Shown here piece after piece: positions 31,970 through 52,651 of a stretch of DNA of 64,000 nt. A program made the translations under genes and the position numbers. The first letter of the stretch is position 1. Each line of letters opens with the position of its first letter. Origin of the DNA: a virus (Duplodnaviria > Caudoviricetes). The DNA is taken from the IMG/VR virus record IMGVR_UViG_2909979649_000004. One strand, 5' to 3'. The notes beneath the pieces were generated by a model that was not told where the DNA came from, ran no database searches, and saw only the letters and a program-made list of their open reading frames with translations.

Positions 31970-31974
31970 TCACC

Positions 31975-33090: not shown

Positions 33091-33093
33091 CCT

Positions 33094-33540: not shown

Positions 33541-33542
33541 CC

Positions 33543-33917: not shown

Positions 33918-33920
33918 ACA

Positions 33921-34686: not shown

Positions 34687-34967
34687 GCAATAACACTTTT
34701 ACTGTCGAAGTCGGCGACCAAGCGTTTACCTTTACGATTACGGTCGATGATTACAGTAGTTTTATTAATAAATTCAGCGAAAAAAATAAAATTGCACCGG
34801 CTTATAACTTTTGTATGCAAACGGTTTCGAAGGACGATAAACCCGCGCTAAAAGAATTATTGGCCCATCCCAGTGTAGCCCCGCAAATTGCGAGCGCGCT
34901 AATGGAGCAATACGTACCGCAGTTAAATATTGTGGTAAAGCCAGTGAGGCCGTCGGCGAGCAATTAA
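34683..34967 (+). CDS. Tail assembly chaperone
   Basis: NKIAPAYNF; precedes tape measure. Confidence 0.75.
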   Translation: MSNNTFTVEVGDQAFTFTITVDDYSSFINKFSEKNKIAPAYNFCMQTVSKDDKPALKELLAHPSVAPQIASALMEQYVPQLNIVVKPVRPSASN

Positions 34968-35131
34968 AGGAGAATTCTTTATTGCAACTGATGTGGCTGG
35001 CGAAAAAACATTTTCCACACCAGCCCGTCACCGCCGACACCATGGGTGCCGCTTTATTTTTTGAACAGCAATATTGGGAGCATATGCAAATCGCGGTTGC
35101 CAATGGCATCAGTCAAGCATTTAAGGGTTAA
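34934..35131 (+). CDS. -1 frame extension of tail chaperone (GT-like product)
   Basis: GGTAAAG site; -1 frame open to TAA 35131: ...LMWLAKKHFPHQPVTADTMGAALFFEQQYWEHMQIAVANGISQAFKG. Confidence 0.65.
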   Translation, partial: GKASEAVGEQLKENSLLQLMWLAKKHFPHQPVTADTMGAALFFEQQYWEHMQIAVANGISQAFKG

Positions 35132-35142
35132 TCAATTTAATT

Positions 35143-37155
35143 ATGACCAGCACGGCCACTGGGCATTTACATTTTATTATCTCGCTGACGAATCATTTAA
35201 CGTCACCGATTGCCGGCATACAAAACCAAATCAATCAACTGACGGATGGCGCTAGCCGTGCGTTTGGCATGATTGGCATGGGGGTAGCCGGTTTAATCGG
35301 TGCCGGTTATGCGATTAAAGCCGCATTGGAACCGGCCATTGATATGGATCGGGCGATGGGTGAAGTGCGTTCGCTCGGTGTCGTCGAAGCAGACTTGCTG
35401 CAATTAAAAAATACGGCCATGGATTTTGCGGTGGAATACGGCAAGTCAGCGGCGGATTTTGTGCGGGCGAGTTATGACATTCAATCGGCGATCAGTGGCT
35501 TAACTGGTCAGGAATTAGGGGATTTTACCAAAGCCAGTGGTATTTTAGCGGCGGCCACCAAAGCGGATACGGCCACCATTACCAGCTACATGGGCACAAT
35601 GTACGGTATTTTTAAACAGCAAGCGGCCGTGATGGGCAATGCTGACTGGGTGGAAAGGGTCGCCGGACAAACGGCCAGTGCGGTACAAATGTTTAAAACC
35701 ACCGGCAGTGAAATGTCATCCGCGTTTAGTTCCTTGGGTGCGGGGGCAACAGCGGTCGGTGTGTCCATGAATGAGCAAATGGCGATCCTCGGCACCCTGC
35801 AATCCAGTCTTTCCGGCTCAGAAGCGGGTACCCAATACAACGCCTTTTTAGCGGGATTATCCAAAGCGGAATCTGCATTAGGCTTACAGTTTACCGATGC
35901 GGCGGGCATGGCATTACCTGTTGTGGAGGTGCTGGACAAGATCAAAGCCAAATACGGTGAATTAAGTCTGGTGGATCAGGCGGATTTAACCAAAGCCTTT
36001 GGTACCGATTTAGCCACTAAATTTATTGTGTCTCTCAGTAATGACGTAGACGGCTTGCGTAGCAGTATTAATAAGCTGGGAGATATTAAAGGGATGGACA
36101 CCGCCTTAGCCATGGCCCGCGCCCAAGTGGATGCCTGGGAACGGTTAGGCGCGGCGGTGGATGTGGTCAGGATTGGCTTTGGTTCGGCGTTATTACCGGT
36201 GATTAATCCCTTAGTGGATACCCTGGCAGATATGGGATTTACCCTGCAACGCTGGACCCAATTATTTCCCAACCTTACCCGCTGGGTGGGGTATTTCTTT
36301 TTAGGGTTAATGGGGCTGATTGCGGTGATGTCGCTATTAACGCTTACGGCTGGTTTAGCCTTTGGGTCTTTTGTCGTCTTAACCAATCCGATTACTTGGG
36401 TGCTGGCTGCTTTAGCCGGGCTTGCCTATATCATTTACCAACTGCTCTTTAATTGGGATGGATTTAAAGACACCTTGCGCAGTGTCGCCGATGCTTTGAG
36501 TTTTTTACCATTGCCAGTGGGGTTAATTGTGGAAGCCTTTATCTGGTTGGTGGATCACCTGTATTTAGTGGGGGATGCTTGGGACTGGTTAAAAGCGAGC
36601 TGGCAAAATGTTGTCAGTTATTTATCGGATACCAGCGTTTTTCAAATGCTAATGCAGGTGTTTTCGTTTTTTAATCCGGTACTGGGATTGGTGGCCCAGG
36701 GTTTTCATTGGCTATCCACCTTATGGCAACAATTTACCCATTACCTGGCAGAGGTTGGCCCTTTTGAAGCAATACTAAAAATCTTTTCGTTATTTAATCC
36801 ATTACTCGGATTAGTGATTAAAGCGATTCAAGGACTCGGCGACTGGTGGGAACACCTGAAAAAAACCTTTGCTGACGTGGGTGTGTTTGAGTTTTTAGCC
36901 AGCATTGTGGATTGGGTGATCGATAAAATTAATAGGATCCCCGGGATTAATATTGAAATTGATAAAGAAGCCTTAAAGCCAAACATTGCCAGCTTAAAAC
37001 GCCCGATACAATCCCAGGTACCGACAGGCGGGTTATTAAAAACTATTAATAACAATCAGCAGCATAACCAAAATAATTATCAAACCAACCATATTTACAC
37101 CCAAACCGTCGACAGTCAGTTTTTACACAACCAAATTGAAATGGAAGCGCCCTAA
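35143..37155 (+). CDS. Tail tape measure protein
   Basis: A.GEV.SLGV, SYDIQSAI.GL, Ala-rich, W-spaced repeats. Confidence 0.9.
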   Translation: MTSTATGHLHFIISLTNHLTSPIAGIQNQINQLTDGASRAFGMIGMGVAGLIGAGYAIKAALEPAIDMDRAMGEVRSLGVVEADLLQLKNTAMDFAVEYGKSAADFVRASYDIQSAISGLTGQELGDFTKASGILAAATKADTATITSYMGTMYGIFKQQAAVMGNADWVERVAGQTASAVQMFKTTGSEMSSAFSSLGAGATAVGVSMNEQMAILGTLQSSLSGSEAGTQYNAFLAGLSKAESALGLQFTDAAGMALPVVEVLDKIKAKYGELSLVDQADLTKAFGTDLATKFIVSLSNDVDGLRSSINKLGDIKGMDTALAMARAQVDAWERLGAAVDVVRIGFGSALLPVINPLVDTLADMGFTLQRWTQLFPNLTRWVGYFFLGLMGLIAVMSLLTLTAGLAFGSFVVLTNPITWVLAALAGLAYIIYQLLFNWDGFKDTLRSVADALSFLPLPVGLIVEAFIWLVDHLYLVGDAWDWLKASWQNVVSYLSDTSVFQMLMQVFSFFNPVLGLVAQGFHWLSTLWQQFTHYLAEVGPFEAILKIFSLFNPLLGLVIKAIQGLGDWWEHLKKTFADVGVFEFLASIVDWVIDKINRIPGINIEIDKEALKPNIASLKRPIQSQVPTGGLLKTINNNQQHNQNNYQTNHIYTQTVDSQFLHNQIEMEAP

Positions 37156-37481
37156 TGGACTATATCGATTTATTAATTAATGAAAATGATCTGGTGTTAA
37201 CTATAGCCGGTGAACCACAATTAACCAGTGACCGAGCCAGTATTGCCCAAGATATTCAACATGCGATCCGGGAAAGCGGTTTATTAGTGGACATGATCGG
37301 CGAGCGCCACCCGGAACAACGCCAACGGCTGATTCAGGAACTCACCTTACTGGTAGAAGACGACGAGCGATTAATACCCGGCACCATTATTTTTCATGAA
37401 TCCCGCCAAGGCCGTTATTTATTGACGGCGGATACTTACGACTACGGTCCTGTGGAAATTCAGAATGCGCTCGCTGTTTAA
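37155..37481 (+). CDS. Baseplate protein (DUF2590)
   Basis: SIAQDI.HAI.ESGL, VEDDERLIPGT. Confidence 0.8.
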   Translation: MDYIDLLINENDLVLTIAGEPQLTSDRASIAQDIQHAIRESGLLVDMIGERHPEQRQRLIQELTLLVEDDERLIPGTIIFHESRQGRYLLTADTYDYGPVEIQNALAV

Positions 37482-38637
37482 ACGCCTGGTGGCGGATGCC
37501 AATATACCCACTGAGGAAACCCAATTAAAAAGCCGGTTTAAACAACTGGCGAAAGAACAGGGTAGTCAACTCAGTAATGACAGTCGCTATTCGCCATTCT
37601 GGCGGATTATTACCGCGTTAGTCATTCGACCAGTGTTGTGGTTAATGGATTTACTGATTGACCAGGTGTTACCGAATGCGTTTTTACAAACGGCCCGAGG
37701 CCGCTATTTGGATTTATTAGCCTGGGCGGTACACGTTGAACGTAAACCCGCGACACAAGCTGAAGGCATAATCGAATTTCACCGAGCCAGTAGCGATTTA
37801 GCGGTGACAATTCCCGCGAATATGGCCATTCAATCGGTGGCCATTAATGGCACCGTGTATGAAGTCAGAACCACGACAGAAACTACCTTTGCAGCGGGTG
37901 AGTTAATCGCTACAGCGCCAGTAAAAGCGACACAAGCCGGTAAAGCCTTTAACCTGGCACCGGGTTATTATGCGATTTTACCCGAGCCAATTAATGGCAT
38001 AATCCAGGTGACGAACCCTGACGGGTGGTTGACGACACCCGGTGCTGATGAAGAAGCCGACGAGGCGTTACGCTGGCGGGCCCGTAATCAATTTGGGGCG
38101 GTCAATCAGTGGCATACGGATAGTGTCTACCGCAGCTTAATTGCGCAGTTTGCGGGGATTGATAGCCGCCATATTTATTTTGAGCATAACGCACCCCGGG
38201 GGCCGGGCACCGCGAATGCCTTTATTTTATTTGCGGCCGATGCCCCTGCAGATGAGTACCTAGAAAAAATAAATCAGTATATTCAGGCGGAAGGTAATCA
38301 CGGTCATGGGGATGACCTGCAGGTATTTGCCCTACCGGAAAAATCATTCGACATTACATTGAATGTGTGGCCTAACCCATTTTTAACAGAAGACAATAAA
38401 CAGCAATTAAAAACCAATATTGAACACTTTATTAAAACGGCTTTTCGGGAAAGCACCACCGATAATTATCAACCTACCCAAGTCAGCCCACGCAGCCGGT
38501 TTAGTTTTTCCAAACTCACCCAGGAGTTACACCGACAATTTAGTGAGATTGATTCGTTACAGTTTGAGAATACCGATATTGTCAGCGAGTTATGGTTACC
38601 GCAAATCAAGACATTGACGGTGATGCTGCATGATTAA
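37465..38637 (+). CDS. Baseplate J-like protein
   Basis: PGADEE.DE.LR.R, APRGPGTAN. Confidence 0.88.
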   Translation: MRSLFKRLVADANIPTEETQLKSRFKQLAKEQGSQLSNDSRYSPFWRIITALVIRPVLWLMDLLIDQVLPNAFLQTARGRYLDLLAWAVHVERKPATQAEGIIEFHRASSDLAVTIPANMAIQSVAINGTVYEVRTTTETTFAAGELIATAPVKATQAGKAFNLAPGYYAILPEPINGIIQVTNPDGWLTTPGADEEADEALRWRARNQFGAVNQWHTDSVYRSLIAQFAGIDSRHIYFEHNAPRGPGTANAFILFAADAPADEYLEKINQYIQAEGNHGHGDDLQVFALPEKSFDITLNVWPNPFLTEDNKQQLKTNIEHFIKTAFRESTTDNYQPTQVSPRSRFSFSKLTQELHRQFSEIDSLQFENTDIVSELWLPQIKTLTVMLHD

Positions 38638-39226
38638 ATTAAAGTTACCCTTTTGGTTAGGTGGATCAGAGTTAAATAAATTAACCCGCATATGTGAACA
38701 GTTTTATGGTGAGGTGGAAAGCTGGTTACGTTGGCCTTTATCGCAATTAGACCCATCCACCTGCAGCGAAGGGGTTTTAAATTTACTCGCCTGGCAACGG
38801 GATATTAGCCGGTTTAAAGGCGAGCCCTTAAGCCTATTTCGAAAGCGGGTGCAGTATGCCTTTATTAATAATGTCGATGCCGGTTCAACGGCTGGGGTTA
38901 AACGGATACTCGAACGGTTAGGCGTGGGCTATTGTGAGGTAGATGAACGTACCCCGGGATTAGATTGGGACATTATCACCTTAAAATTATCTGATAGTCA
39001 GCTCGCCCAACACCCCGAATTACTCAGCATTATTTTACAGATGTATGGCCGCACCTGTCGGCGTTATGTGTTTAGCACCATTACCCCAGTGAAGTTATTT
39101 ATTGGCGTTAATGAATTTAGTCATGACCAGGTGACCCAAGTTGCACAATTACATAATACCGCCCATTTATACGGCCAAAGTCAATTACTAGACCACTCAC
39201 AACAAGTGTTATGTGCTCAGTTATAA
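38630..39226 (+). CDS. Tail protein I-like
   Basis: LLAWQRDI.RF.GEP..L.RKRV. Confidence 0.82.
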   Translation: MIKLKLPFWLGGSELNKLTRICEQFYGEVESWLRWPLSQLDPSTCSEGVLNLLAWQRDISRFKGEPLSLFRKRVQYAFINNVDAGSTAGVKRILERLGVGYCEVDERTPGLDWDIITLKLSDSQLAQHPELLSIILQMYGRTCRRYVFSTITPVKLFIGVNEFSHDQVTQVAQLHNTAHLYGQSQLLDHSQQVLCAQL

Positions 39227-39256
39227 AGAAAAATTCAGAAATAAAAGGAAAATAAT

Positions 39257-40972
39257 ATGCCTGTCATTACCCATGCCGGTGAACGGCTTATCGCTGAAAA
39301 ACAAGGGATGCAAAGCCCTTTAATTATTAAACACTTTGTGTTGGCCAATGTGCCGGATTTAACTGATACCGACCCAGAGAACCGGCACGAGCTGTTGCCG
39401 AGTGATGATTTAATTCAATACCAAGCCCCAGTGACGCAAGCCGGGTTTATTAATCCGAATGCGGTGGTGTATTCGTTAGTGATGGACACCCGTATTGGTG
39501 ACTTTGAATTTAACTGGTTGGGTTTGGTGGCAGAGGATAATACTTTAGTCGCCGTCAGTTATGTACCGAAACAGTGGAAACGCAAAACCCAGGGTAGCCA
39601 AGCGGGAAACAGTTTAACCCGTAATTTTATGTTGGCGTTTAGTGGTGCTCAGGATATTACCCAAATCGATGTTAACGCCGACACCTGGCAAATTGATTTC
39701 AGTGCTCGACTCAATGGCATTGATGAACGACAACGGTTGGCCAATCTGGATTTATACGGTCATGACGTATTTTTTAGTGACGGCTTTAAAGTCATTCGAC
39801 AGGATGCCCACTATTTAATTACGGCGGGTGTCGGCTATGTGGGTGGTGTTCGGGTTACCACCGAAAAACATTTAATTAAAGTCACCGAACAGCCCTCTGC
39901 CATTTGGGTGGATGTATGCCAACAAGGCAGTGTCACCAGTAATATTGAAACGGTAGTGGCGTTTAATGTCGTGGCTGAATTATCGGATTATGTTGACCGA
40001 TTTGAACGCCCACACTGGGTAGCCAAACTCGCGGAGATTAATAGCCAAGGGGAAGTGATTGACACACGACGAGTCACGGACGGTTTTGCCGAGCATTTTA
40101 TTAGTGATAATCCCCATAACCAGTATTTAACCAAAGCCTTGGCATTACAATTACCTATAATGCCGGAAGTGTTAACCCCCACGAATCGGTTAGCGGTCAT
40201 TATTGAGCATCAACAACTCACTATTGTGAAAAATCAGGTGATTCGTTGGCGGGGTTGGCAGGATTTTAATACGTCAGGTTATTCTGAAAATCAGAGACAG
40301 TTTTTTATTGATTCAGATAAAACCTATCATTTGCGATGGTCGCCACTAGGTGGGTTTGATTTAAAGGATTTAAATGATACTCCCTATAATCCCAATAGTT
40401 TGGTTGAATATGACTTATCCTTTGATACCACCTATGACGATGTGTTGTTAGGAAAAATTGAGGCCGGTGATTATTACCCTTCCATTATCGCTACTAAACG
40501 TTTATATCGTCCAAAAATTTCCGGCAATGGTACGCTATGGTTGCCGCTAGGTTATCGTGATCGTTCTTTTCGTTTATTAGTCACAATTAGAAATCAACTG
40601 CAGCAGGGAAATGTTTTGTTTAAATCAGTTGATAAAGCACATACTGCATTATTTACCATGAGAGGAAACAATCATGGTGACAACATGAATGTTGAATTAG
40701 ATAGTGATGATGAATTTTGGTTGACAAGCAATAATAGTAACGGTGAAGTCAGTATTAGTACATTAACCGGCGATATCATTGATGACTTGCTGTATATGCA
40801 AAACCATCAAAGCGAATATGTGAAAAAAATTCAACCAGGCAATACGATTGATGGTGATGAAGAGCTTTTTTCGATGGGAATAAAGCGTTTAACGACTGAA
40901 GACGTTCAAAAAGGGTTACCACTGGATTATGCAAATATTGAAAGTGCTTCAATCGTATTTGAAGTGTTTTAA
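39257..40972 (+). CDS. Tail fibre protein
   Basis: N-terminal collar domain (NAVVYS, GDFEFNW.GL, TWQIDF.ARL); variable C-terminus. Confidence 0.85.
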   Translation: MPVITHAGERLIAEKQGMQSPLIIKHFVLANVPDLTDTDPENRHELLPSDDLIQYQAPVTQAGFINPNAVVYSLVMDTRIGDFEFNWLGLVAEDNTLVAVSYVPKQWKRKTQGSQAGNSLTRNFMLAFSGAQDITQIDVNADTWQIDFSARLNGIDERQRLANLDLYGHDVFFSDGFKVIRQDAHYLITAGVGYVGGVRVTTEKHLIKVTEQPSAIWVDVCQQGSVTSNIETVVAFNVVAELSDYVDRFERPHWVAKLAEINSQGEVIDTRRVTDGFAEHFISDNPHNQYLTKALALQLPIMPEVLTPTNRLAVIIEHQQLTIVKNQVIRWRGWQDFNTSGYSENQRQFFIDSDKTYHLRWSPLGGFDLKDLNDTPYNPNSLVEYDLSFDTTYDDVLLGKIEAGDYYPSIIATKRLYRPKISGNGTLWLPLGYRDRSFRLLVTIRNQLQQGNVLFKSVDKAHTALFTMRGNNHGDNMNVELDSDDEFWLTSNNSNGEVSISTLTGDIIDDLLYMQNHQSEYVKKIQPGNTIDGDEELFSMGIKRLTTEDVQKGLPLDYANIESASIVFEVF

Positions 40973-40974
40973 TC

Positions 40975-41853
40975 ATGAAGGCTATCCATATTAAAACCCC
41001 ACCCACGCTGGGAAATGTAAAAGAAAAACAAGCATCAGTAATAGTAAAGGCCAACGCCCCATTACAGGCGTCGGCCTCTAAAGTAATGCTCTTACACGAT
41101 AATTATATTGAAAATAAAAATAAAGCTTCCGCTCAGACTATTTTGGACTTAAGAGTCGATTTTAATAAACATTTACAGAACAATATCCATTGTTGTGTTG
41201 TGCACCCTTACCAACATACGGTAGGTGAAGGGGAGGGACACCACCGGTATTTATCGGCACCCAATGCGATTAAAGCGTTGCAGCAAAAATACCAGGATCA
41301 ACGGGACCAGCAGCAGCCACACAACAACCAGGCAGCAATTGTGGTATTAATCACCGCCTCGCATTTAACGCCGTTCTATCAAACCCTAACGGCATTTAAT
41401 CAGGTGATGCCAGTACCGGAGTTGCAACAACTGACCCGGCGGGTAAAAGCGTTAATTGAGTTGGAAACGACTAAATGGGAGCAGCCCAAAGCACCCCAGA
41501 TGCCGTATTGGCGACAATTGCAATTGACCCAGTGGCAAAGCCCACAAAATTATTTAAAGCAACTGGGAGCAACTCAGGCAGCGATAGAAGCGATGGCCGA
41601 TGATCAATCACCGAAAGCCATCTTAACCGAGCTGATTAATAAAAAACGCCAATACCTCAATCAGTTGTATGTCGATTGGCAACAAACCACCCAAGCACTA
41701 CAAAATGTAGTAGGGCAGTATTTGGCGGGAAATATCAGCCAGCAGTTAACCCAACTGAACGCGCCGGGTCATGACCAGGTATTAACGGCGGGTGTCTTAC
41801 TCTCGGGTACGGCAGACGCCTTACACACGCTCAAGGAAACCTTTAACTTATGA
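40975..41853 (+). CDS. Conserved HP1/K139-like tail-region protein
   Basis: HPYQ..VG...YLS.PNA; gene order. Confidence 0.7.
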   Translation: MKAIHIKTPPTLGNVKEKQASVIVKANAPLQASASKVMLLHDNYIENKNKASAQTILDLRVDFNKHLQNNIHCCVVHPYQHTVGEGEGHHRYLSAPNAIKALQQKYQDQRDQQQPHNNQAAIVVLITASHLTPFYQTLTAFNQVMPVPELQQLTRRVKALIELETTKWEQPKAPQMPYWRQLQLTQWQSPQNYLKQLGATQAAIEAMADDQSPKAILTELINKKRQYLNQLYVDWQQTTQALQNVVGQYLAGNISQQLTQLNAPGHDQVLTAGVLLSGTADALHTLKETFNL

Positions 41854-42428
41854 TGATTGGTGACTATCAGGTCCAAGGTAGCAACCTGCAGGTGGTGGGG
41901 GGGTTACGGATCAGCAATGAAGAATTAAGTGGTGCCAGTAGCGCCACCGATCGTGCCCATAAAGGGTTTAAACCCAAAACCCTAACCGTGTCGCTGCAGA
42001 TCAAACAAAGCCAGCCCGAGCAATTAACCCGGTTGATTGAGTTAGCCGAGGGTGTGGATAAAGCCGGTAAACAAACGGTTTACACGCTGGTGGATAATAC
42101 CGCGAAAGCGATGAATATCCGCCAGGTGCAGTTTAACGACAATTTGAGTGCGCGAGAATCCGCCGATAAACGCTTATGGCAGGTGCAATTTACCTTAGCG
42201 GAATACCGCTCTGTACCGGAAAAGGTTGAGCAACGCCAACCGAAAAAAGACCCAAAAAAACAGCAAGCCGATGGCCAGCCTATTGGGTCAGATAATCAAG
42301 CAAGCAACGAACCGGCATTAACCGAGTTTGAGCAGCTGTTAAAACAAATAGACGAGCAAATAGGCCCCCGTGAAACTGAACAGCCAGCTGATGATCAATC
42401 AGCAGATAATACCGCTAGTGCGGCATGA
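41850..42428 (+). CDS. Baseplate complex protein (gpU-like)
   Basis: SG.SS.T..A.KG.K.K.L.V, W.V.FTL.E..SVPE. Confidence 0.7.
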   Translation: MMIGDYQVQGSNLQVVGGLRISNEELSGASSATDRAHKGFKPKTLTVSLQIKQSQPEQLTRLIELAEGVDKAGKQTVYTLVDNTAKAMNIRQVQFNDNLSARESADKRLWQVQFTLAEYRSVPEKVEQRQPKKDPKKQQADGQPIGSDNQASNEPALTEFEQLLKQIDEQIGPRETEQPADDQSADNTASAA

Positions 42429-43053
42429 TATCCGCTTAGCCTTAAATACCCCTGGTCGTGCCACCTTTGTGGTACGGCCTAAAGTCCCATTAACAGCAAA
42501 AACCGTAGTAAAAATAGCCATGGGTTATGGTGATAATTTACAGCAGGTATTTGTAGGCTATATCGAAAAAATCACCCCAGTGGATAAACACCAACAGCAA
42601 TTATTCTGCAGGGAATTAACCGGGATTTTGCATTACCCGTTACCCATGAGTTTACGGCATGTGCATTTAAATGAGGTATTAAACCAAATCGCCCAGCAAA
42701 CCCGACTGACGTTTATTACTCCTGAACAAGCCTACTGCACTACTAAAATCCCTTATTTTTACAGCCTGAATAATGGGCTGTTTGCCATGAGTTCAATCGC
42801 GCAGGCATTTGCTATTGATGATTATTGTTGGCAGCAACAAGGGAATGGACAGGTGTATGTGGGGAGTTGGCAGCACAGTTATTGGCAGGATAAACCGATA
42901 AAAATCCCTGAACAATTTTTTATTAACCATCAATCCCATAACAGTGCGCAAATTGCAGCAATACCCCAAATACGCCCTGGGGTGTTATTAGACGATGGCA
43001 GCCGGATAAAACAAACCCAAATTAATAACAATCAAATGGTCATATCATGGTAG
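42370..43053 (+). CDS. Baseplate hub protein (gpD-like)
   Basis: PGRA.F, FCREL, WQQQG.G.VYVGSW..S.W. Confidence 0.72.
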   Translation: MKLNSQLMINQQIIPLVRHDIRLALNTPGRATFVVRPKVPLTAKTVVKIAMGYGDNLQQVFVGYIEKITPVDKHQQQLFCRELTGILHYPLPMSLRHVHLNEVLNQIAQQTRLTFITPEQAYCTTKIPYFYSLNNGLFAMSSIAQAFAIDDYCWQQQGNGQVYVGSWQHSYWQDKPIKIPEQFFINHQSHNSAQIAAIPQIRPGVLLDDGSRIKQTQINNNQMVISW

Positions 43054-43997
43054 AAGCCATTAAACGCATTGTATTAAGTTTATTTCCAGAACTGGCGGGT
43101 AATTATCATTTACCCCGCTTTGGTCGGGTGGTGGCCATCAGTGATTTACCCAAACAAGGGAGTCTCTGTGATGAGTTTAGGCCTCACTATGCGGTGGATA
43201 TTGAGGTATTAAACGCACAAGGCAAGCCGGATAAAAAATTACCGATATTATCGAGTGTAACCGTACCCATGGCACTAGCAGGCCAGGAAAAAGGCTTTTA
43301 TGGCTTACCGGAAGTGGGTACTTGGGTGGTGGTCGGGTTTGCATATGGTCTGCCTAATAAGCCATTCATACAACAGTTATTACCGAATGGCTTATCACTC
43401 CCCAACCTTGAGCAAAAAGAGCAGCGTTGGCAGCCTAATCCGTCAAGCTACCAACGTTGCGATCACAAGGGCGCCTGGGAACGAACCTCAGACAGTAGTA
43501 TCAGGGATGAGAGCTTAAGTTATCAGCTGGAAACCCTACACCAGGAAACCACAGCCCAAACCAGCCAAACGACAGTTACCGAGCACAGCACTGAAACGAT
43601 TGGCGGCACCAAAGCCATTGAGGCAATGGGAGCTCTTAAACTCCATTCCGGTGGTACAGCTGAATTAGCCGCTATTGATAATTTAAAGGTAGCTACAGGC
43701 AATGATAGTCATACTGTCGTAGGTAACGATATGCAAGAGCATATCAACGGGATTAAACACAGCCTGGCCAAACTGAAGCAAATCGCCCAAGTCAAAGACG
43801 GAGGCAAAGTCTGGTTGGGGAATGAAAGTGACAATGTGTTGCAACTGCTGTCGGAATTTATGGCGGTGGTTGAGCAAGCGTTTTTAGACTTATCCACCCA
43901 TGGCCATACGCCTGCTGGACCAACTAATAAACATAGCCTGATACAGCAGGCGGGTACAGTTAATCAGCAGAATACTCATCTTAAAACAATGCTTTAA
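43047..43997 (+). CDS. Baseplate spike protein (gpV-like)
   Basis: PEVGT.V.VGFAYG.P..PFI; C-terminal HGH metal motif. Confidence 0.75.
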   Translation: MVEAIKRIVLSLFPELAGNYHLPRFGRVVAISDLPKQGSLCDEFRPHYAVDIEVLNAQGKPDKKLPILSSVTVPMALAGQEKGFYGLPEVGTWVVVGFAYGLPNKPFIQQLLPNGLSLPNLEQKEQRWQPNPSSYQRCDHKGAWERTSDSSIRDESLSYQLETLHQETTAQTSQTTVTEHSTETIGGTKAIEAMGALKLHSGGTAELAAIDNLKVATGNDSHTVVGNDMQEHINGIKHSLAKLKQIAQVKDGGKVWLGNESDNVLQLLSEFMAVVEQAFLDLSTHGHTPAGPTNKHSLIQQAGTVNQQNTHLKTML

Positions 43998-44279
43998 GAG
44001 AAATAATAATCTAGTAGTCTAACAATAGAGTCTTTTCACCTTGACTTATGCTGTATCTCTAAGAAAGAGCCTGTATATCAAAGCAGACAGGCATCACCTG
44101 TTGCCTTGAGTAGTGAAAGAAGCACTAGTAATGAAAAATACAAACGATAGGCATGTGACCTAGAACTTGCTACAGGAGCAAACTTTATCTGTAGCAAAGC
44201 CCTAGGAGACTGATTTGTAAAGGGTGTACTGGTTAGCTTTTATACAAAAAGTTAACCAGTTTTTAGAGTAATGAGCTGG

Positions 44280-44771
44280 TTAAATACCTGTTCTTACTTC
44301 TTTTGAAGAGCTTTCATTATTTGGTTCTATAAAATAGCGCTTAACCTCATTCATTTTATCTACTAATGCCTGCTTTTTATTCATAGTTTCTCGATGATTA
44401 AACCTAATGCCTGTCTTACTGTTTACTCTATTAAGGTTTTGGGTAAACGATTCAATTGCATGGTTAAGCTTATAAATAGTTTTTTTATCAAGATAACTGA
44501 GATTGGATAAAGTGAAGTTAGCCTCAGATATAATCTCTGGCAACATCTCTAGCAAATGGTATTCAGATGATCTGTGCTTAAGAGTCTGTCTTTCTTTAAG
44601 CCAAAGTTCCAATTCTTCGATTTCTTTTATAGTGAGCTTCGCGGCCACGTGAGGAGCGACCTGAGTTAAATGACTATCAAATGATGCCACTACTTTTTCA
44701 CTCAATATATTATCTTTACTCACTTGCTCGCGAATGCATTGGACTCGTGAACCAATAATTTTAAAGTACAT
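44280..44771 (-). CDS. Hypothetical protein divergent from sHSP cluster
   Basis: 163 aa ORF, AAGGAG RBS. Confidence 0.65.
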   Translation of the reverse strand: MYFKIIGSRVQCIREQVSKDNILSEKVVASFDSHLTQVAPHVAAKLTIKEIEELELWLKERQTLKHRSSEYHLLEMLPEIISEANFTLSNLSYLDKKTIYKLNHAIESFTQNLNRVNSKTGIRFNHRETMNKKQALVDKMNEVKRYFIEPNNESSSKEVRTGI

Positions 44772-45082
44772 AATAATGCTCCTTTATTAATGAATAATTA
44801 AAAGGTAAATAAAAGTTTAATAAAAAAGCAGTTTTTTTGATTTAGGGATTGTAAATTTTCATATGATTAATAAGCCACTTACAATCAACAAAAACTAGCG
44901 CTGATTAGATATGGTTCTGTATATAATGTGTACAGGGTATTGGTAGTAATCAAAAACACCCTGCTGATGTAAATAATATTAATTTTGACTTAGGCTTTGT
45001 CAAGTCCTAAGTAAGCTGCAATTTTATAAATATAATTTATATGTAAAAAACTGCTTATTAAAATAAATTATTTATCTGGGTG

Positions 45083-45110
45083 TTGAACTCTTTAAAATAG
45101 AACCCATCAT
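45083..45110 (+). promoter_or_regulatory. sigma32 heat-shock promoter
   Basis: TTGAA-15 bp-CCCATCAT upstream of the ibpA-like gene. Confidence 0.65.
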
Positions 45111-45167
45111 ATGTATTGAAAAAAGGAGTTACTTTTAAATCTACAACTGTAAATTGACTGTATGATC

Positions 45168-45194
45168 TCGTATTGCTTCTAATGGAGGATATGA
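45168..45194 (+). promoter_or_regulatory. ROSE-type RNA thermometer hairpin
   Basis: UCGUAUUGCUUC pairs with GGAGGAUAUGA; UUGCU motif opposite the SD with bulged G. Confidence 0.75.
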
Positions 45195-45195
45195 A

Positions 45196-45660
45196 ATGAC
45201 TACACTAGATTTATCTCCCTTATATCGTAGCAGCATAGGGTTTGATCAATTAGCATCAGTATTTGACACAGCTTTTCGCAGTGAGCAAACTGGTTACCCC
45301 CCTTATAATATCGAAACAATTGATGAAAACCACTATGGTATAACACTAGCTGTAGCTGGCTTCGAAGAGCGTGAGTTAAGCATTCAGGTAGAGCAAGGAG
45401 TGCTCACTGTTAGTGGCAAAAAAAATAAAAATAATGAATCTAAAAAGTTCCTTTATCAAGGAATTGCTACTCGTTCATTTGAACGAAAATTTAATTTAGC
45501 TGACCATGTTGAAGTGACTGATGCCAGTCTAAGTAATGGGTTACTTAGCATTAGTTTGGTTAGAGAAGTGCCTGAGGCAATGAAACCAAAAACTATCCCT
45601 ATTAGTCAGGGGAACCATAACGTTCTAGAGCATAAAAAAAAGGAGGGAAAAGTAGCCTAA
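45196..45660 (+). CDS. ibpA: Small heat-shock protein IbpA
   Basis: DLSPLYRSSIGFD, YPPYNIE, LYQGIA.RSFERKF.LA, NGLL. Confidence 0.92.
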   Translation: MTTLDLSPLYRSSIGFDQLASVFDTAFRSEQTGYPPYNIETIDENHYGITLAVAGFEERELSIQVEQGVLTVSGKKNKNNESKKFLYQGIATRSFERKFNLADHVEVTDASLSNGLLSISLVREVPEAMKPKTIPISQGNHNVLEHKKKEGKVA

Positions 45661-45839
45661 GTAAAAAGCCATAATAATCTTAAGCGTCTAGCGTCTTCTT
45701 TTAAGGAGGTAAAATATTAACACATAAAAGGTGGGTGATTACTCGCCCACCTAGCTATGATGGATAAGTGTAATGATTTCTCTTTAATAGTATTTCAAAT
45801 CTTGCATTGTAAGCACTACTTAAAACTCATCATTAGTTT

Positions 45840-46460
45840 TTGAATAATCGTGATTTTAAGGAGGTGATACTAGTGTTCGACTTAAAAAACTATAAATTCT
45901 TATACTTAATTATTAGTTTGTGCATCACTATCATTGGCGTATTAGCCTTTACTACATGGAGATTGTCCTCAGAGCTTAAAACTGTGGAAGGTAATACCCC
46001 TATAGCGTCAAGTGACATAATTAAACCGCTTCCAGCACCTTGGCCTAAAGATATAGATCCATGGTTAGATAGCTGGGACCCATCTGGTAATTTTTCAGCA
46101 CTGCAAAAGCGTATGGATGAAATGATGCAAGTGATGTTACCAGATATGTCCTTCTTTAATATGCAGGGCTTTGGTTACTCTAGCTCTAATCCTAAGATCA
46201 GAATGGATGAAACAGATACTGAATATAGGGTCACTGTATCAGTTCCAGAAGCCCAGAATATTGAAGTTAACACAGAGCTAAAGAACAATATATTAACTAT
46301 CAATGGTAAAGTAAAACAACAGGAAAGCAGTCAGCAAAGTAAGCTTTTTTATACAAGTCAGTTTTCTCAGTCTGTTACTTTACTTGAACCAGTAGATAGC
46401 ACAAATATGAGGGTTGACAATAAAAATCATAAAGTGGTTATTACGATTCAAAAAACATAA
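45840..46460 (+). CDS. Hsp20-family protein with N-terminal TM anchor
   Basis: Hydrophobic N-terminus plus alpha-crystallin-like C-terminus; true start may be GTG 45873. Confidence 0.75.
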   Translation: MNNRDFKEVILVFDLKNYKFLYLIISLCITIIGVLAFTTWRLSSELKTVEGNTPIASSDIIKPLPAPWPKDIDPWLDSWDPSGNFSALQKRMDEMMQVMLPDMSFFNMQGFGYSSSNPKIRMDETDTEYRVTVSVPEAQNIEVNTELKNNILTINGKVKQQESSQQSKLFYTSQFSQSVTLLEPVDSTNMRVDNKNHKVVITIQKT

Positions 46461-46600
46461 AACTATTTCAGCAAAATAAACTGTAAAAATATGACAGTTT
46501 TAAAGTATAAGTATTTACCTATAAGGAGGATAAAAAATCTGATATTTAATAGTATGCCTTGGCTTTAATAGATTTAACAATTGTCAAAGGAGACCATGTC

Positions 46601-47146
46601 ATGAATGTAAAAGACTTAATCCCTTGGAACTGGCTAAAAAATGAAGAAGAGAGGGAAAATAAACAGTTAAAAGCAAGTAATATCTATGATCCAACGGCAA
46701 ATCCATTGGTACAATTTCATAGAGAAGTTGACCGACTATTTGACAACATGTTCAAAGGAGTTGGCTTTCCTGGCTTCTCAGAAGGATAGTCAAAGCTACC
46801 AAATAGTTTGTTTAAACCTAGCGTAGATATTAGCGCAAAGGATATAGAATATCTAATTAGCGTGGAGGTACCTGGTGTTGAAGAAAAAGATATTAAACTT
46901 GAAATAAAGGATCATACACTCGTTATTAGTGGTGAAAAGAAACAAGAAAAGGAAGACAAAGAGGAGCATCATTACCGAGTTGAGCGCAGCTATGGCTGTT
47001 TTCAAAGGGTTTTAGCGATTCCAGAAGATGCAAGCACTGAAGAAATTAATGCATCATTTAAGAATGGTGTTTTATCCATTACATTACCTAGAAGAGAATT
47101 ACCAAATAGAAAGGCTAAACAAATAGAAATTAAGAAAGCTAGTTAA
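46601..47146 (+). pseudogene. Hsp20-family gene interrupted by an in-frame TAG (46787-46789)
   Basis: ORFs 46559..46789 and 46808..47146 are in frame; LIPWNW N-terminus plus PSVDI...ERSYG.F.R...NGVL. Confidence 0.85.
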
Positions 47147-47689
47147 AAGTATTTGGGTCATGCTTGTTGCAGTTCAATTGCATTCACTTGCAACAAGACA
47201 CGACCCGATGTGTATTATTAACAGGCTTCCAAGGCCCTCTATGCTTGTCGTCAGTCCAAGCACAGCAGATAATGTATGTTATCAAGATGGGGCTTGTTCT
47301 CAGTATTGTCTTACAGTTTGTTATCTGTATTTAGTAACTCATTGCTTTTCTTTCTTTAATATTACCCCACTACTTCATTAACACCTACCTTTACTTATGT
47401 CAGATTATTTTCTTATTTGTGTCAGAGACTGGTTATCATCACTTCCATTCTGCAGGCGCCTGGGAGTGTGCCGGCAGAGCCACCAGAATCCAAAAGGCTG
47501 GAAAAAAGCACTCATCCTCCCCACCTGCGGGTTTTGCGTCATAAAAGTTTTGTGTAATTGAAGTTATGGCAATGCTTAGTAGCTAAGCTTTATTGTATAA
47601 GGTCTTTAAGAGTTAATTGTTGTTTTCTCAAAATGAAAAATTATCTTAGTTTAAGCAAAAAAATACATTTTCAGTGCAAATTATTTATG

Positions 47690-47800
47690 TTAAGAAAACA
47701 AAAGTATTGTCGTATTCAATATAGGTAGCATTTTTAGTTTTAGGCTGTAGTGTCTAACCCTAATTTCTTTTCTTACTTTCTCAAGTAATGGACATGCCAT
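47690..47800 (-). pseudogene. intI: 5' stump of integron integrase, second copy
   Basis: GAGG RBS; MACPLLEKVRKEIRVRHYSLK, 2 bp deletion, then CYLY*IRQYFCFLN; same TGA as copy 1. Confidence 0.82.
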
Positions 47801-47844
47801 AATCACCTCTACATACATCACATAGCTATTAAGGTGAAATGATG

Positions 47845-47860
47845 CTGTATATAAATACAG
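47845..47860. promoter_or_regulatory. LexA box at intI promoter
   Basis: CTGTATATAAATACAG, 45 bp upstream of the intI start, as typical for integrons. Confidence 0.85.
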
Positions 47861-47934
47861 CGTTAATGGATGAACGTCAAAGTATTATTTGATTTACAAA
47901 CAATTATATGTGAATCAGTTAGTTGGGTGAGTCC

Positions 47935-48046
47935 TATCAACATTATTCTAGTAATAAGTTTGTGCCTTGGTTAAAATATACTCGATTGTTATACGTCAAT
48001 GCGACGTAGTACTTTGCGTCAGAGTGACGCTCATTAATAGTTAGTA
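47935..48046 (+). other. Integron attI-like site, copy 3
   Basis: Same 110 bp block; core GTTAGTA 48040-48046. Confidence 0.8.
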
Positions 48047-48051
48047 CCACT

Positions 48052-48426
48052 ATGAGCGCAGAAAACGCATTAATAATATCTAGTGAGGAGATTTCAAAGG
48101 ATTCCTATATCGAGTTCTTTGAGACTTTGGGTTGCCATTGATATTCTTGACACAAGGATGAAGCCATTGTTCTCGATGAGTACACACAAGTTGGTGTGTG
48201 CCTTATGGACTCAAGCTACATCGAGATGTTTGATGACGATGACTTAAAAAAACTACAGAATGCTTTGGGTGCTCCGCCTAAAACGTTCTTTGAAGTAAAC
48301 CGTACAAAAGCAGACGACCCGAATGAGCTATATCTGGCTGTAGCCAAGAAGATGGCAAAGATGTGGCCTGTGGCTGTTCGGGATACACATGAAAAAATGG
48401 TGCCTTATAGTGAACTCATGTCGTAA
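48052..48426 (+). pseudogene. Cassette gene with two in-frame TGA stops
   Basis: ATG 48052 in frame with ORF 48196..48426; stops at 48139 and 48148. Confidence 0.7.
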
Positions 48427-48431
48427 ATTAA

Positions 48432-48492
48432 AGCTAACAAGCGCGTTAATTAGAGCGCTCGAAGGGTTGCGTCTATTACGCGGGCGTTATGT
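48432..48492 (+). other. attC site (61 bp), apparently intact
   Basis: AGCTAAC-AAG-CGCGTTAAT...ATTACGCG-GGC-GTTATGT with extrahelical T. Confidence 0.82.
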
Positions 48493-48548
48493 TTAGTTGA
48501 GCTTCATTGTTCTAAGTCCACTTCCTACAAAAAATCAGAGTATAAATT

Positions 48549-49421
48549 ATGGACAATATTGTGCGAGAGGTCCTGAAAACAAAAATTATGGGGCTCAAAG
48601 CGACAGCCTTCCAAGATGCATTGGATAGAATTTATCTTAGCATTTACGGTGAGGGAAACTTCCAGAGAGTAAAGCAGAAGCACGATGGTGGTTCGGATGG
48701 AATCATAAATGGTGAAACGGTTTTGGCAGTGTATGCTCCAGAAAAATATATCTTGAATGATTTTAAGAGGAAGGTTAGAGCAGATTTTGAGTCTTACACG
48801 AAAAACTGGGAAGCTACACACAGCAAGTGGGAGGTTGTAACCAATTTGGAATCGACCGCACAAATGATACAGTTTGTGAACATGCTTAAGAATGGTGCAT
48901 CTCTTATATGTATTGATGGTTTGTTGCAGAAAATTGGTAAGCAGACGTGGACGGTGAAAACGGCGATTTTTAGAGCGCTAGATATCCCTGACCATTACTT
49001 ATCTAACGATGTGATCTCAACAGTAATTGAAGACTTAATTCAAATAAGCACCCAAGATGATCCTTTTGAGCCCTATGAAAAACCAGCCTATATACAAGAT
49101 AAAATCGAACTAAATGTTAGTGAGGAACACGTGGCTACGTTTATGGATGAGTATGAAGACTCGCTGGCCATTTTTCCTATAGTATCGACGGTCGTCAAGT
49201 CAAAATCGAACGCTGATGTTGCTGCTATAAGAAACAAAGTAAGGTCCACTTATACATCCTTGTCTGGGAAATTTGAAAAGCGGCTTGATGAGCTTGTAAA
49301 GATTATGTGTCAAAGTAAGTCAATAGATGATTACTATAGTCATAATATGCGCATCGTAATGGTATATTTTTTTGAACAGTGTCTGTTTGGTAAAAAGCCA
49401 AAATCAGAGGTTAATAGATGA
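48549..49421 (+). CDS. lmuA: Lamassu/ABC-3C effector (restriction-like nuclease N-terminus + C-terminal domain)
   Basis: FQ...DGGSDG...VYAPE, K...DF; KIELN and YFFEQC.F C-terminal motifs; operon context. Confidence 0.7.
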   Translation: MDNIVREVLKTKIMGLKATAFQDALDRIYLSIYGEGNFQRVKQKHDGGSDGIINGETVLAVYAPEKYILNDFKRKVRADFESYTKNWEATHSKWEVVTNLESTAQMIQFVNMLKNGASLICIDGLLQKIGKQTWTVKTAIFRALDIPDHYLSNDVISTVIEDLIQISTQDDPFEPYEKPAYIQDKIELNVSEEHVATFMDEYEDSLAIFPIVSTVVKSKSNADVAAIRNKVRSTYTSLSGKFEKRLDELVKIMCQSKSIDDYYSHNMRIVMVYFFEQCLFGKKPKSEVNR

Positions 49422-49651
49422 TTAATGCGCATGTCGAAATGGATTTAAATCAGCATGTTTCAGTTGTTTCCGCAAAAATTATTGATTTGGTTGAAGCTGG
49501 AAACGAAGTGATTTTAGAAACTTTAATGAGGAAGTTTCTAAAAAAATATGAGTTCTATACCCCTGATCAGTTTATGGAAGGGCTGACCTTCTTGTTCTCT
49601 ATAGATTGTTTGAATGTTCAGGACTACAGGGTGATATTAAAAAATGTTTAA
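49418..49651 (+). CDS. lmuC: Lamassu/ABC-3C middle component
   Basis: 77 aa, F...L.FLFSI..L; between effector and ATPase. Confidence 0.68.
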   Translation: MINAHVEMDLNQHVSVVSAKIIDLVEAGNEVILETLMRKFLKKYEFYTPDQFMEGLTFLFSIDCLNVQDYRVILKNV

Positions 49652-51404
49652 GCTCATTGCATTGTCTTCGCCATCAGGTCTTTTTAAAGATATTGTATTT
49701 AGGGATGGTCTGAACATAATTCTCGGAAGGTATTCAAGATCGGGAAAAGATATCAATGGAATTGGAAAAACTACAATAATTAACCTTATCGATTACTGTC
49801 TTTTAGCGGATGGTGTCAAGTCTGAGCTATTTAAAGAAAAGTATGATTTTCTGAGGCATGAACGTATTCGGCTCGACTTCATGCTTGGTGGTAAGAAATA
49901 TTCAATTGAACGAGGCTTTGAGGATAAGAAAAAGGTATTTTTCACAACAAATGGAGAGGATGCTAAGGAGTTCATTGATAGTGATCTTAGATTGATACTA
50001 GGCTCAGAAATGGGGAAGGGGCAGGCTGGTATATATGAACCAATTTGGTTTAGGACGCTGATGTCGTTTTTTGTACAGAATGACCATAATTTTTTGCAAA
50101 GAGATGCAACGAATGTTCTGAAATTTACTATTGGTAAGCGCCAACCTGAGCTTTTCACCTATATTTTTTTAATTTTAGGCATTGATAATAGTCTTATATG
50201 GGATTTTGACAATAGCAGTGTTGAATTGAAGAGATTGCGAGCAGATCAAACGCGCATTAATAAACAAATAGTAGAGCAAACAGGAAAATCAATAGAGGAC
50301 TTTAGAGGCGAGTGTGACTCTGTTGCAAGGAAAATTGATAAGCTAGAAGAGGGATTGGATAACTATCAATTCGATGATAATAGCGCCGCCCTCGAAGATA
50401 AGCTGCAAGCACTCAGTGAACAAATATCAGGTTTAAATAAAAAGTATATATATCTAGTAAGCAAGCACAGAGATATTCAAGAGAGCCTCCAGATTGATGT
50501 CGATGTAGACCCTGATGAGGTTTCTGGATTTTACTCGGAAATTCATTCTGAGTTTTCTAGCTTTATAAGAAAGAGTCTCAATGAAGTTATTGAGTTTAGG
50601 AAGGAAATAGCTACAAATAGACGAAAATTTCTTAAGGAACGCGAGGCTCAATACCAAGGGCAATTGAGCGAGATAAAGAATAAACTAATTTCACTTGAAG
50701 CAGAGCGATCTAGGATTTTTAAAATGCTAGATGAAAAATCCGCATTTGATGCACTAAAGTCTGCTTATACTAATCTAATCGAGGAGAAAGCTCACCTTTC
50801 TAGTCAGTTTTCTTATATTGAGCAATTGGATCATATAGAAGAATCAATTGCCAGCAAGAAATCATTGGTTAGCTCTACAGTTGCAAAACTTGTGGCGAAG
50901 AAGAATGAAAACATACAAACGGTAGATGAAATAAAAAGTATATTTCTAGATTTGGTAGAAGGTTCGGTAGATATTGATAGTTCAGATGTAAGTCCGTATT
51001 TCAATATTGAATTCAAATCAATTCAAAACAGTCCAATCAAGCTATCGCTAGAAGTACCTAGAGGTAGTTCTTTAGGTAAGGGGCGATTCAAAATATTAGC
51101 TTTTGATCTCACTGTATTTATCACTTCTGTTTTAAGAAAGACCGAATTCCCAAGCTTTTTAATTCATGATGGTGTTTTCCATGCGATAGCACACAAAACA
51201 CGAATTAAATTTCTTAATTACATCAACAGTAAACTCGGTGAATTGGGTGGCGCTCAATATATTATTACTGTAAACGAGGATGAAATCATATTTCCTGAAA
51301 GTGAAGGCGTTTCAATAGATTTGGACTTTAAATTGGAAGATAAAACATTAATAACTCTTGAAGACAATCCTGATCATATGTTTTTAGGCAAAGAGTTTGG
51401 ATGA
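49644..51404 (+). CDS. lmuB: SMC-like ABC ATPase (DUF2326), Lamassu LmuB
   Basis: GLNIILG, NGIGKTT Walker A, coiled coil, S.GK...KILAFDL, FLIHDG, QYIITVN. Confidence 0.8.
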   Translation: MFKLIALSSPSGLFKDIVFRDGLNIILGRYSRSGKDINGIGKTTIINLIDYCLLADGVKSELFKEKYDFLRHERIRLDFMLGGKKYSIERGFEDKKKVFFTTNGEDAKEFIDSDLRLILGSEMGKGQAGIYEPIWFRTLMSFFVQNDHNFLQRDATNVLKFTIGKRQPELFTYIFLILGIDNSLIWDFDNSSVELKRLRADQTRINKQIVEQTGKSIEDFRGECDSVARKIDKLEEGLDNYQFDDNSAALEDKLQALSEQISGLNKKYIYLVSKHRDIQESLQIDVDVDPDEVSGFYSEIHSEFSSFIRKSLNEVIEFRKEIATNRRKFLKEREAQYQGQLSEIKNKLISLEAERSRIFKMLDEKSAFDALKSAYTNLIEEKAHLSSQFSYIEQLDHIEESIASKKSLVSSTVAKLVAKKNENIQTVDEIKSIFLDLVEGSVDIDSSDVSPYFNIEFKSIQNSPIKLSLEVPRGSSLGKGRFKILAFDLTVFITSVLRKTEFPSFLIHDGVFHAIAHKTRIKFLNYINSKLGELGGAQYIITVNEDEIIFPESEGVSIDLDFKLEDKTLITLEDNPDHMFLGKEFG

Positions 51405-51580
51405 AATTGAGGCGACAACTATTCTGACATAAGGGGCTGGCATTTCTTACCTCAAAGCAATTCAATCGCATTCTTTAGTTGTTAGGTAAACCTGTTCAAG
51501 ACTTTCTCTATCAAGCAATTTGTGTGATTGGTTGCTGGTAGAGTGATTCCTATCAACACACATTATATAGAGAAGCATTC

Positions 51581-51856
51581 ATGAAAATGTACGTTGGCAA
51601 CCTGTCATATAATGTCACAGCTGAAGATTTAAAAGAAACCTTTTCCACTTATGGTGCCGTAGCAGATGTAACGCTGATTACTGACCGGGATTCTGGTCAG
51701 TCTAAAGGCTTTGGCTTTGTTGAAATGGAGAATAACTCTGAAGCGGATGCGGCGATCAAAGGACTAAATGGTAGTAACCTACAAGGTCGAGATATGAAAG
51801 TGAATCAAGCTCAGCCAAAATCTAACAGTCGTCCACAACGTAGACCAAGGTATTAA
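51581..51856 (+). CDS. RRM RNA-binding protein
   Basis: RNP2 MYVGNL, RNP1 KGFGFVEM. Confidence 0.93.
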   Translation: MKMYVGNLSYNVTAEDLKETFSTYGAVADVTLITDRDSGQSKGFGFVEMENNSEADAAIKGLNGSNLQGRDMKVNQAQPKSNSRPQRRPRY

Positions 51857-52102
51857 TAACGAATTTAGCTTCAAGCACTGAAGGTATTAAGTGGTGTAAC
51901 TTTTGCCTTTAGTGATTAACCAAATTGTCACGAAGTTTTCATACTGACGAGCAAATCTTTTCCTTTGATTTGGGTTTTGAGTGCGAAACGAGTGCGAAAA
52001 TTGTCCCCAATTACACACAAAACCTCACCCTGTAAGGTTTTCAGGTAATGTTATAAGTAATTGATTTTAAAGGGATTTTAGGAAATTTAAGGTGAGTGGA
52101 AT

Positions 52103-52128
52103 TGGTGGAGGCGGCGGGAATTGAACCC
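52103..52128 (-). repeat. att core = 3' end of tmRNA (ssrA) gene
   Basis: Minus strand GGGTTCAATTCCCGCCGCCTCCACCA; IHF site TAAGTAATTGATT and GAGTGCGAAA x2 to the left. Confidence 0.88.
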
Positions 52129-52375
52129 TGTAGCAATAAAAGCTTAAACATTTATTCTTAAAGGTTATTTATGACTAAGCTGTAACGTTGGGGTGAATAA
52201 TGGGGACGGTGATTCCTCCTACTTTACACATTTAGACCTGCCTAGAGTATTGATTTCATTTAAATTTTTAGCAGGTTCAAACTATTCTAATCAGTGTAAA
52301 AGATGAATCAACATCTGACCAATTTGGTGAGATAAAAAGTGCTTCCTCACCAAATTAAATTTAAAGCTCTAAGTA

Positions 52376-52651
52376 CTAATACCTAGGTCTACGCTGTGGG
52401 CGGCTGTTAGATTTTGGTTGAGCCTGATTCACTTTCATATCCCGGCCTTGCAAGTTACTACCATTCAGGCCTTTGATTGCGGCGTCCGCTTCCGAGTTAT
52501 TCTCCATTTCCACAAAGCCAAAGCCTTTAGACTGGCCAGAATCCCGGTCAGTAATCAGCGTTACATCTGCTACGGTACCATAAACTGAAAAGGTTTCTTT
52601 TAAATCTTCGGCTGTGACATTGTATGACAGGTTGCCAACGTACATTTTCAT
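52376..52651 (-). CDS. RRM RNA-binding protein
   Basis: 89/91 aa identical to 51581..51856. Confidence 0.93.
   Translation of the reverse strand: MKMYVGNLSYNVTAEDLKETFSVYGTVADVTLITDRDSGQSKGFGFVEMENNSEADAAIKGLNGSNLQGRDMKVNQAQPKSNSRPQRRPRY

Follow-up and report, generated by a model that had tools for sequence, protein, structure and literature searches.

Integrons carried by phages have been reported before, among them one in the P2-like Shewanella prophage M16-3 (Qi et al. 2023, PMC9892861), and a phage-borne integron is not a new kind of system. Here we describe a decayed integron that, judged from its sequence context, very probably forms part of the genome of a temperate P2-like phage, where it lies between the last baseplate gene and the attachment arm. 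It was found in a 64,000-nucleotide stretch of viral DNA (Duplodnaviria; Caudoviricetes; IMG/VR record IMGVR_UViG_2909979649_000004), hereafter called the window, and was studied together with the surrounding bacterial genome of 6.69 Mb (four contigs, among them the chromosome C1, the plasmid contig C2 and C3). The window holds an integrated unit, element 2, that carries a remnant of the integrase gene intI followed by an attI site and cassettes; a second copy is present in the neighbouring element 1. What is new here is a dead integrase whose attI has been kept, recurrence in two phage families and two genera, 16 orphan attI-type sites on prophages and plasmids of one genome that lacks IntI, and a link to the question of how P2 hotspots acquire their cargo.

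Shewanella phage vB_SspM_M16-3 (Peduoviridae; MZ568829) resembles the window in being a P2-like prophage with an integron near its attachment end; intI is preceded by a LexA site, the attC cassettes are small, and a single prophage has two attI sites. Its intI is intact, whereas that of the window has been cut to 45 codons, and its integron lies on the repressor/integrase side rather than after the tail genes. M16-3 IntI is just 46% identical to the IntI of Zooshikella, and M16-3 is a single cryptic prophage, unlike the recurrent arrangement found here. Vibrio anguillarum phages Va_90-11-286_p16 and PF430-3_p42 (PMC9892861) also carry intI and are inducible temperate phages with or without cassettes; their integrons are pieces of the large chromosomal integron of the host taken at excision, whereas no host integron was found in the present case. 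P2-like defence hotspots (Rousset et al. 2022, PMC9122126; PMC13586616, 2026) likewise hold variable anti-phage cargo at a fixed prophage place. No capture mechanism is known for the E. coli-type P2 hotspots, in contrast to the attI site and attC-bounded cargo described below, and the 2026 survey of thousands of P2-like phages (PMC13586616) lists possible mechanisms with no mention of integrons. Cassettes without a working integrase are known as the CALIN and In0 classes of IntegronFinder, and chromosomal integrons can store defence systems packaged as cassettes (bioRxiv 10.1101/2024.07.02.601686). The present locus differs from these in keeping attI and a pseudo-intI, in having one to three cassettes per array, and in its phage carrier.

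Both intI copies in the window correspond to the N-terminal ~45 codons of an integron integrase (Table 1). The stump of element 1, whose frame is unshifted apart from in-frame TGA stops, one of them at the conserved Trp codon, aligned to the integron integrase model TIGR02249 with E=4.6e-6 (model positions 2-37 of 315) and to PF13495 with E=5.9e-6. The score against the intI model was 26 bits, compared with a cut-off of 265; a functional intI, as in a complete integron, is missing, and residues 1 to ~45 alone remain. When intact Zooshikella IntI was compared with the whole genome by tblastn, the two window stumps were the only matches (77% identity over 31 amino acids, E=1e-7, and 86% over 21 amino acids). 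The original prediction had proposed intI stumps with the same TGA at the conserved Trp codon and a LexA box that is perfect in element 2 and degenerate in element 1, all of which were borne out; it had also looked to the host for an intact intI, and this search returned none. Besides this genome, two other species of its genus and two of three Zooshikella genomes yielded no intact IntI. LexA boxes at the intI promoter are common among integrons, though not universal. The box of element 1 is deleted or degenerate, that of G002 (a second species of the genus) is degenerate, and the host genome encodes LexA. The truncated-intI module has at its left edge (window 47470-47560) a repeat of ~75-90 nucleotides (GGAAAAAAGCACTCATCCTCC..CACCTGCG) that also occurs at five other loci (genome C1:920639, 928120, 967704, 1266373 and 1272558).

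A block of ~110 bp comes next and is present three times in the window at 91-93% identity (blastn E 1e-38 to 1e-53, whole genome). Similarity among the three copies ends at AGTTA, and the DNA beyond is unrelated in all three, as the original prediction had claimed. The block is 73-76% identical over 111 nucleotides to a site beside an intact intI in Zooshikella sp. RANM57, with which it shares the end CATTAATAG|TTA. Because the RANM57 block has a LexA box and adjoins an intact intI, this homology identifies the window block as the attI of the integron type of this bacterial family; by sequence comparison, it adjoins a divergent intI and has its putative crossover at G|TT. Conservation had been predicted to stop at the GTTA core, and 28 distinct sites indeed all switch sequence at G|TTA. 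An Rfam scan of positions 47000-52500 gave no RNA family that accounts for the block, and a consensus promoter scan for Pc found promoter-like sites no more frequently than in shuffled sequence. Identity between copies is 89-94% for attI, as compared to 72-88% for the stump and spacer, a modest excess of ~8 substitutions over 111 nucleotides that is only suggestive.

The borders of element 2 are defined by ssrA, which lies on the minus strand 43 kb right of the window's right end (genome C1:1406954-1407324). Left of ssrA stands a tandem array of integrated elements, each ending in a conserved arm and a copy of the ssrA 3' core, and five such arm-plus-core repeats lead up to the gene. The arm-type repeat GAGTGCGAAA has three matches in the window, all in the arms of element 2 (one on the left, 70 nucleotides inside the border, and two on the right). 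The P2-like structural gene set of element 2 is complete (PHROG E 1e-50 to 1e-138), and its tail module ends with the baseplate gene at 43047-43997. With a head module, a contractile tail, an integrase and att sites, element 2 has the gene content expected of a P2-like temperate phage. Its replication genes are lambda O/P-like, and the phage is therefore a mosaic. The intI stump, attI, the cassettes and the RRM-protein gene all lie between the tail genes and the right arm, which places the platform inside the integrative unit and agrees with the original prediction of a prophage-borne platform whose integrase is dead.

Table 1. Coordinates of the integron platform and of the elements that carry it (positions in the window)
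Feature	Position	Strand	Remarks
Element 2	15310-52128		36.8-kb ssrA-integrating unit bounded by ssrA core copies
Left border of element 2	15159-15310	+	right attachment arm of element 1 and ssrA 3' core copy (TGGTGGAGGCGGCGGGAATTGAA)
Left arm of element 2	15380-15389	+	arm-type repeat GAGTGCGAAA
Right attachment arm of element 2	51976-52128	+	GAGTGCGAAA twice, and ssrA core copy
Tyrosine integrase, element 2	16313-17467	-	Arm-DNA-bind_2 domain
P2-like head/tail module	24757-43997		portal, large terminase, scaffold, major head protein, small terminase, sheath, tape measure, baseplate
Variable cargo beyond dead intI	44280-47381		one open reading frame without assignment, three HSP20 genes, 73-amino-acid open reading frame
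Sequence replacing intI past ~codon 45	47501-47683		common to element 1 and two G002 loci
intI stump, element 2	47684-47800	-	TGA at Trp codon and frameshift
LexA box	47845-47860		CTGTATATAAATACAG; perfect CTGT-N8-ACAG
attI, element 2	47935-48043	+	crossover G|TT between 48040 and 48041
Cassette 1	48041-48486	+	interrupted small open reading frame, ending in attC 48433-48492
Cassette 2	48487-51433	+	three-gene ABC-3C / Lamassu-like candidate defence operon (290, 77, 586 amino acids)
Conserved right flank of cargo region	51436-51856	+	conserved leader and RRM RNA-binding protein gene
Baseplate-gene 3' end remnant, element 1	9511-9682	+	~170 bp, 84% identical to 43835-44006
intI stump, element 1	12546-12714	-	no frameshift, TGA at Trp codon
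attI copy a, element 1	12811-12916	+	G|TT between 12913 and 12914
YcxB-like cassette	12916-13419		after attI copy a
RRM-gene leader fused to attI copy b	13874-14098	+	hybrid; attI part 13990-14098, G|TT between 14095 and 14096
Two small cassettes	to about 14930		after attI copy b

The sister genus Zooshikella preserves the arrangement with a complete integrase. RANM57 IntI scores 481 bits against the cut-off of 265, and a perfect LexA box lies upstream of its gene at the same position as the window box. The intact intI starts 80 bp past a homologue (81% identical in amino acids) of the last baseplate gene of element 2, giving the order baseplate gene, convergent intact intI, LexA box, attI and attC cassettes. 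The only intact intI in the bacterial family, among the genomes examined, is thus one that is linked to phage baseplate genes. Z. ganghwensis has an attI core 640 bp past the same baseplate gene. A search for the ssrA core in the extracted loci of relatives found none. The truncation breakpoint at ~codon 45 is common to both window copies and to two copies in G002; one breakpoint in four copies from two species indicates a single truncation event. The TGA at the Trp codon is confined to this genome, and the G002 copies retain TGG. The proposal that intI died once is supported as regards the truncation. The four truncated copies carry different first cassettes, and one of the G002 copies stands at the head of a textbook array of five cassettes. 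On a metagenomic viral contig (IMGVR_UViG_3300020042_007480, positions 5519-7739), a full-length IntI with 55% identity to that of Zooshikella is encoded directly beside a phage integrase that is 38% identical to the ssrA-type integrases of the window.

Cassette borders were examined with an attC covariance model built from six seed sites at loci outside the window, with the structure supplied by hand; RNAalifold gave no consensus structure for the seeds. The model is small and probably under-detects, and it recovers held-out sites in G002 as well as six in the M16-3 integron. Two home-made attC finders (one based on minimum free energy hairpins, the other on motif and end-pairing energy) were set aside as too insensitive or too noisy; at -7 kcal/mol they gave 7 real matches and 0 in the shuffled control, but missed known sites. 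The attC at the end of cassette 1 is the only significant site in the window (25.8 bits, E=1e-4). At element 1, the site at 14513-14549 reached only 10 bits and that at 13413-13476 was not detected. Overall, degeneration or truncation affects three of the window's four attC sites. A CALIN requires at least two attC sites within 4 kb; one site passes the small model here.

Cassette 2 carries an operon whose three genes span 48549-51404. Its ATPase matched PADLOC PDC-M68B with E=5e-57, LmuB with 8e-13 and DUF2326 with 1e-20, and the effector matched PF20275, the ABC-3C C-terminal domain, with a weak E=4e-4 that is below the cut-off. Systems of the ABC-3C/Lamassu-like type combine an SMC/ABC ATPase that has DUF2326 with a small middle protein and an effector; from these matches, the operon is a candidate anti-phage system of this type. 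Relatives of the ATPase at 80-93% identity were found in Methylophaga, Shewanella and many marine metagenome contigs. On one 192-kb metagenome contig the same operon is the second cassette after an IntI gene (441 bits) and lies between attC sites of 36.5 and 24.9 bits. The two units are 91% identical over 2928 nucleotides, with homology that runs from the GTTA of the preceding attC to just past the stop codon. In the window, the attC of this cassette has been cut inside its first box and ACATAA is all that remains. The borders shared with an attC-flanked cassette elsewhere show that the ABC-3C unit is a true cassette that lost its own attC. The cassette anatomy described in the original prediction therefore survives only in part: it is seen in the attC at 48433-48492 and in the borders of the ABC-3C unit, whereas the attC sites of element 1 are degenerate and that of the operon is truncated.

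Element 1 had been taken for a sibling prophage. It is instead a composite remnant, in which only ~170 bp of the baseplate gene is left and is followed by unrelated cargo; the one part of it that is a sibling of element 2 is the right arm. The genes to the left of its stump encode CsrA, a second integrase, GTP cyclohydrolase II, a short-chain dehydrogenase and a SLOG protein. The CsrA-family gene (101 amino acids, 7795-8100) lies directly upstream of a phage-type integrase gene (8305-9486). The hybrid of RRM leader and attI in this element is joined at a shared TCCTATCA motif.

Sites of the attI type are not confined to the window. The 20-nucleotide simple site GTGACGTTCATTAATAG|TTA has 28 separate occurrences among the loci examined across the bacterial family, and the DNA downstream differs at all of them save one pair on homologous plasmids. 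This genome accounts for sixteen of the 28 (nine chromosomal, six on C2 and one on C3), which is unusual where IntI is lacking. Another P2-like prophage family of this genome, unrelated to the first, has its attI immediately behind the stop codon of gpD, and attC-bounded cassettes follow. This order was confirmed at no fewer than four loci (C1 85k, 1281k, 1400k and 4610k), and a fifth, 1953k, has the attI site; one locus of this family is listed by IMG/VR as a 36.7-kb provirus. No trace of intI was seen at these loci, the first of which is at C1:85092-85330 (L032 3114-3340), and one cassette of this family is an Mrr-like nuclease. Scanning the genome with the small attC model revealed no large array that could serve as a cassette reservoir, and few attC sites. 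On plasmid contig C2 (G000:C2:59600-70400; L041 5600-16400), small same-strand open reading frames are separated by repeats of 80-100 nucleotides that open with the hairpin-like AATCGGGTAAGAGCTGGTATCTAGCCAGC and close with GTGACGTTCATTAnTAG|TTA, a site of the attI type. Among them is a single ordinary attC, no integrase is nearby, and the repeats may represent a distinct family of recombination sites. In public sequencing runs, the shares of sampled words were at most 0.07, all in unrelated metagenomes.

We propose the following course of events. An ancestral phage would have carried a complete integron, a state preserved in RANM57. In the present lineage intI was cut a single time at ~codon 45; other cargo would have filled its place, and the stump in this genome would have gained its TGA later. 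Cassettes, the ABC-3C operon among them, would have been loaded by IntI-catalysed recombination at the G|TT of attI; the smaller cassette probably entered ahead of ABC-3C at a later time and has since turned into a pseudogene. The platform would now be unable to recombine by itself and is most likely a fixed cargo locus for genes expressed in the lysogen, and it would travel with the phage whenever the whole 36.8-kb unit is excised from ssrA. Several points weigh against placing the integron within the phage genome in this way. RANM57 keeps just the last two baseplate genes beside its integron, and either phage linkage or chromosomal residence may have come first. The truncated G002 module with the array has no phage genes within 10-30 kb, which indicates that the module is not exclusively phage-borne. 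It is also conceivable that element 2 combines a phage with an integrase-less island and that the core between the two was lost.

The G002 copy in a non-phage context, together with the 150-kb mosaic of elements at ssrA, could suggest that the platform is a chromosomal-integron remnant that merely adjoins prophages at a hotspot and belongs to no phage genome. We consider this improbable, because the platform lies inside matched att arms and tail genes meet integrons in two genera, in two phage families and at scattered chromosomal loci; it also occurs twice in tandem elements at 77-82% identity, hence not by recent duplication. Less probable still is a reading of the 110-bp block as a repeated promoter or leader sequence instead of a recombination site. 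It does precede open reading frames and has small palindromes (ACGTCA/TGACGT), but its homology to the site beside an intact intI and the loss of similarity at the same G|TTA in all 28 copies argue otherwise, as does the cassette known from another integron that begins one attC downstream.

Two processes may have made the cassettes differ after the truncation. Whole arrays may have been swapped between phages and integrons by homologous recombination in conserved flanks, without any IntI action since intI was cut, a view to which we give somewhat less than even weight. Conserved flanks are present on both sides (stump and attI on the left, RRM gene and att arm on the right), and the leader/attI hybrid of element 1 demonstrates a rearrangement at this locus that was not made by IntI. 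However, each sharp G|TTA border still needs IntI at some time, and the G002 C76 locus has neither RRM nor att flank. The orphan attI might also have stayed usable and still be loaded in trans, coupled to SOS, by IntI from a host integron or a co-resident phage; this seems rather unlikely to us. The different first cassettes of the four descendants of one truncation would fit, as would the higher identity of attI than of the flanking stump and spacer, the IntI-proficient relative in the family and the LexA of the host. Against it are the lack of intact IntI in this genome, in two other species of its genus and in two of the three Zooshikella genomes, the lack of a large cassette reservoir, the decay of three of four window attC sites and the small size of the conservation excess; moreover, the LexA box governed the dead intI and not the cassettes. 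The loading from a host chromosomal integron that the original prediction envisaged thus found no support, with no intact IntI in the genome or genus and no large array, and its SOS-coupled loading at the present day is speculation, with no host integron to load from and most window attC sites decayed. The different first cassettes would thus stem either from trans action of IntI after the truncation or from array exchange by homologous recombination.

Other features were noted around the platform. The ssrA region (genome C1:1254389-1406976, window -57000 to 95373) is ~150 kb long, comprises at least four tandem elements at the ssrA 3' end, and holds many shared and rearranged segments as well as insertion sequence copies. 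RRM-type RNA-binding protein genes with a long conserved leader adjoin the attachment arms (window 51581-51856, 52376-52651 and 14951-15039); the segments 51732-51858 and 52374-52500 form an inverted pair, and more copies are found across the array. The three HSP20 (small heat-shock protein) paralogues of the prophage cargo are consecutive (45196-47146). Shortly after the last baseplate gene lies a 111-bp sequence with a hairpin (44011-44121) that is repeated in direct orientation, 96% identical, 21 kb rightward (65091-65201). This pair was considered as an inner element border and dropped, as there is no ssrA core within.

Returning to the phage-borne integron, the hotspot in the window holds the remains of a capture machinery (intI stump, LexA box and attI) together with a candidate defence operon that has the borders of an integron cassette. 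For at least one phage lineage, this offers a testable mechanism of gene entry into the defence hotspots of P2-like phages. It also turns what were a few single cases of phage integrons into a recurrent pattern, seen in two phage families and two genera, and it raises the question of why a genome without an integron integrase keeps 16 attI-type sites. A wider reading, which we regard as doubtful, is that the integrons of this family are mainly phage and plasmid accessories, and that their dozens of orphan attI sites form a shared docking network, served in trans by the IntI of some phages at co-residence or superinfection, that moves defence cassettes between hotspots by attI x attC recombination. 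If this is true, such a network would be a site-specific mechanism of hotspot turnover in P2-like phages.

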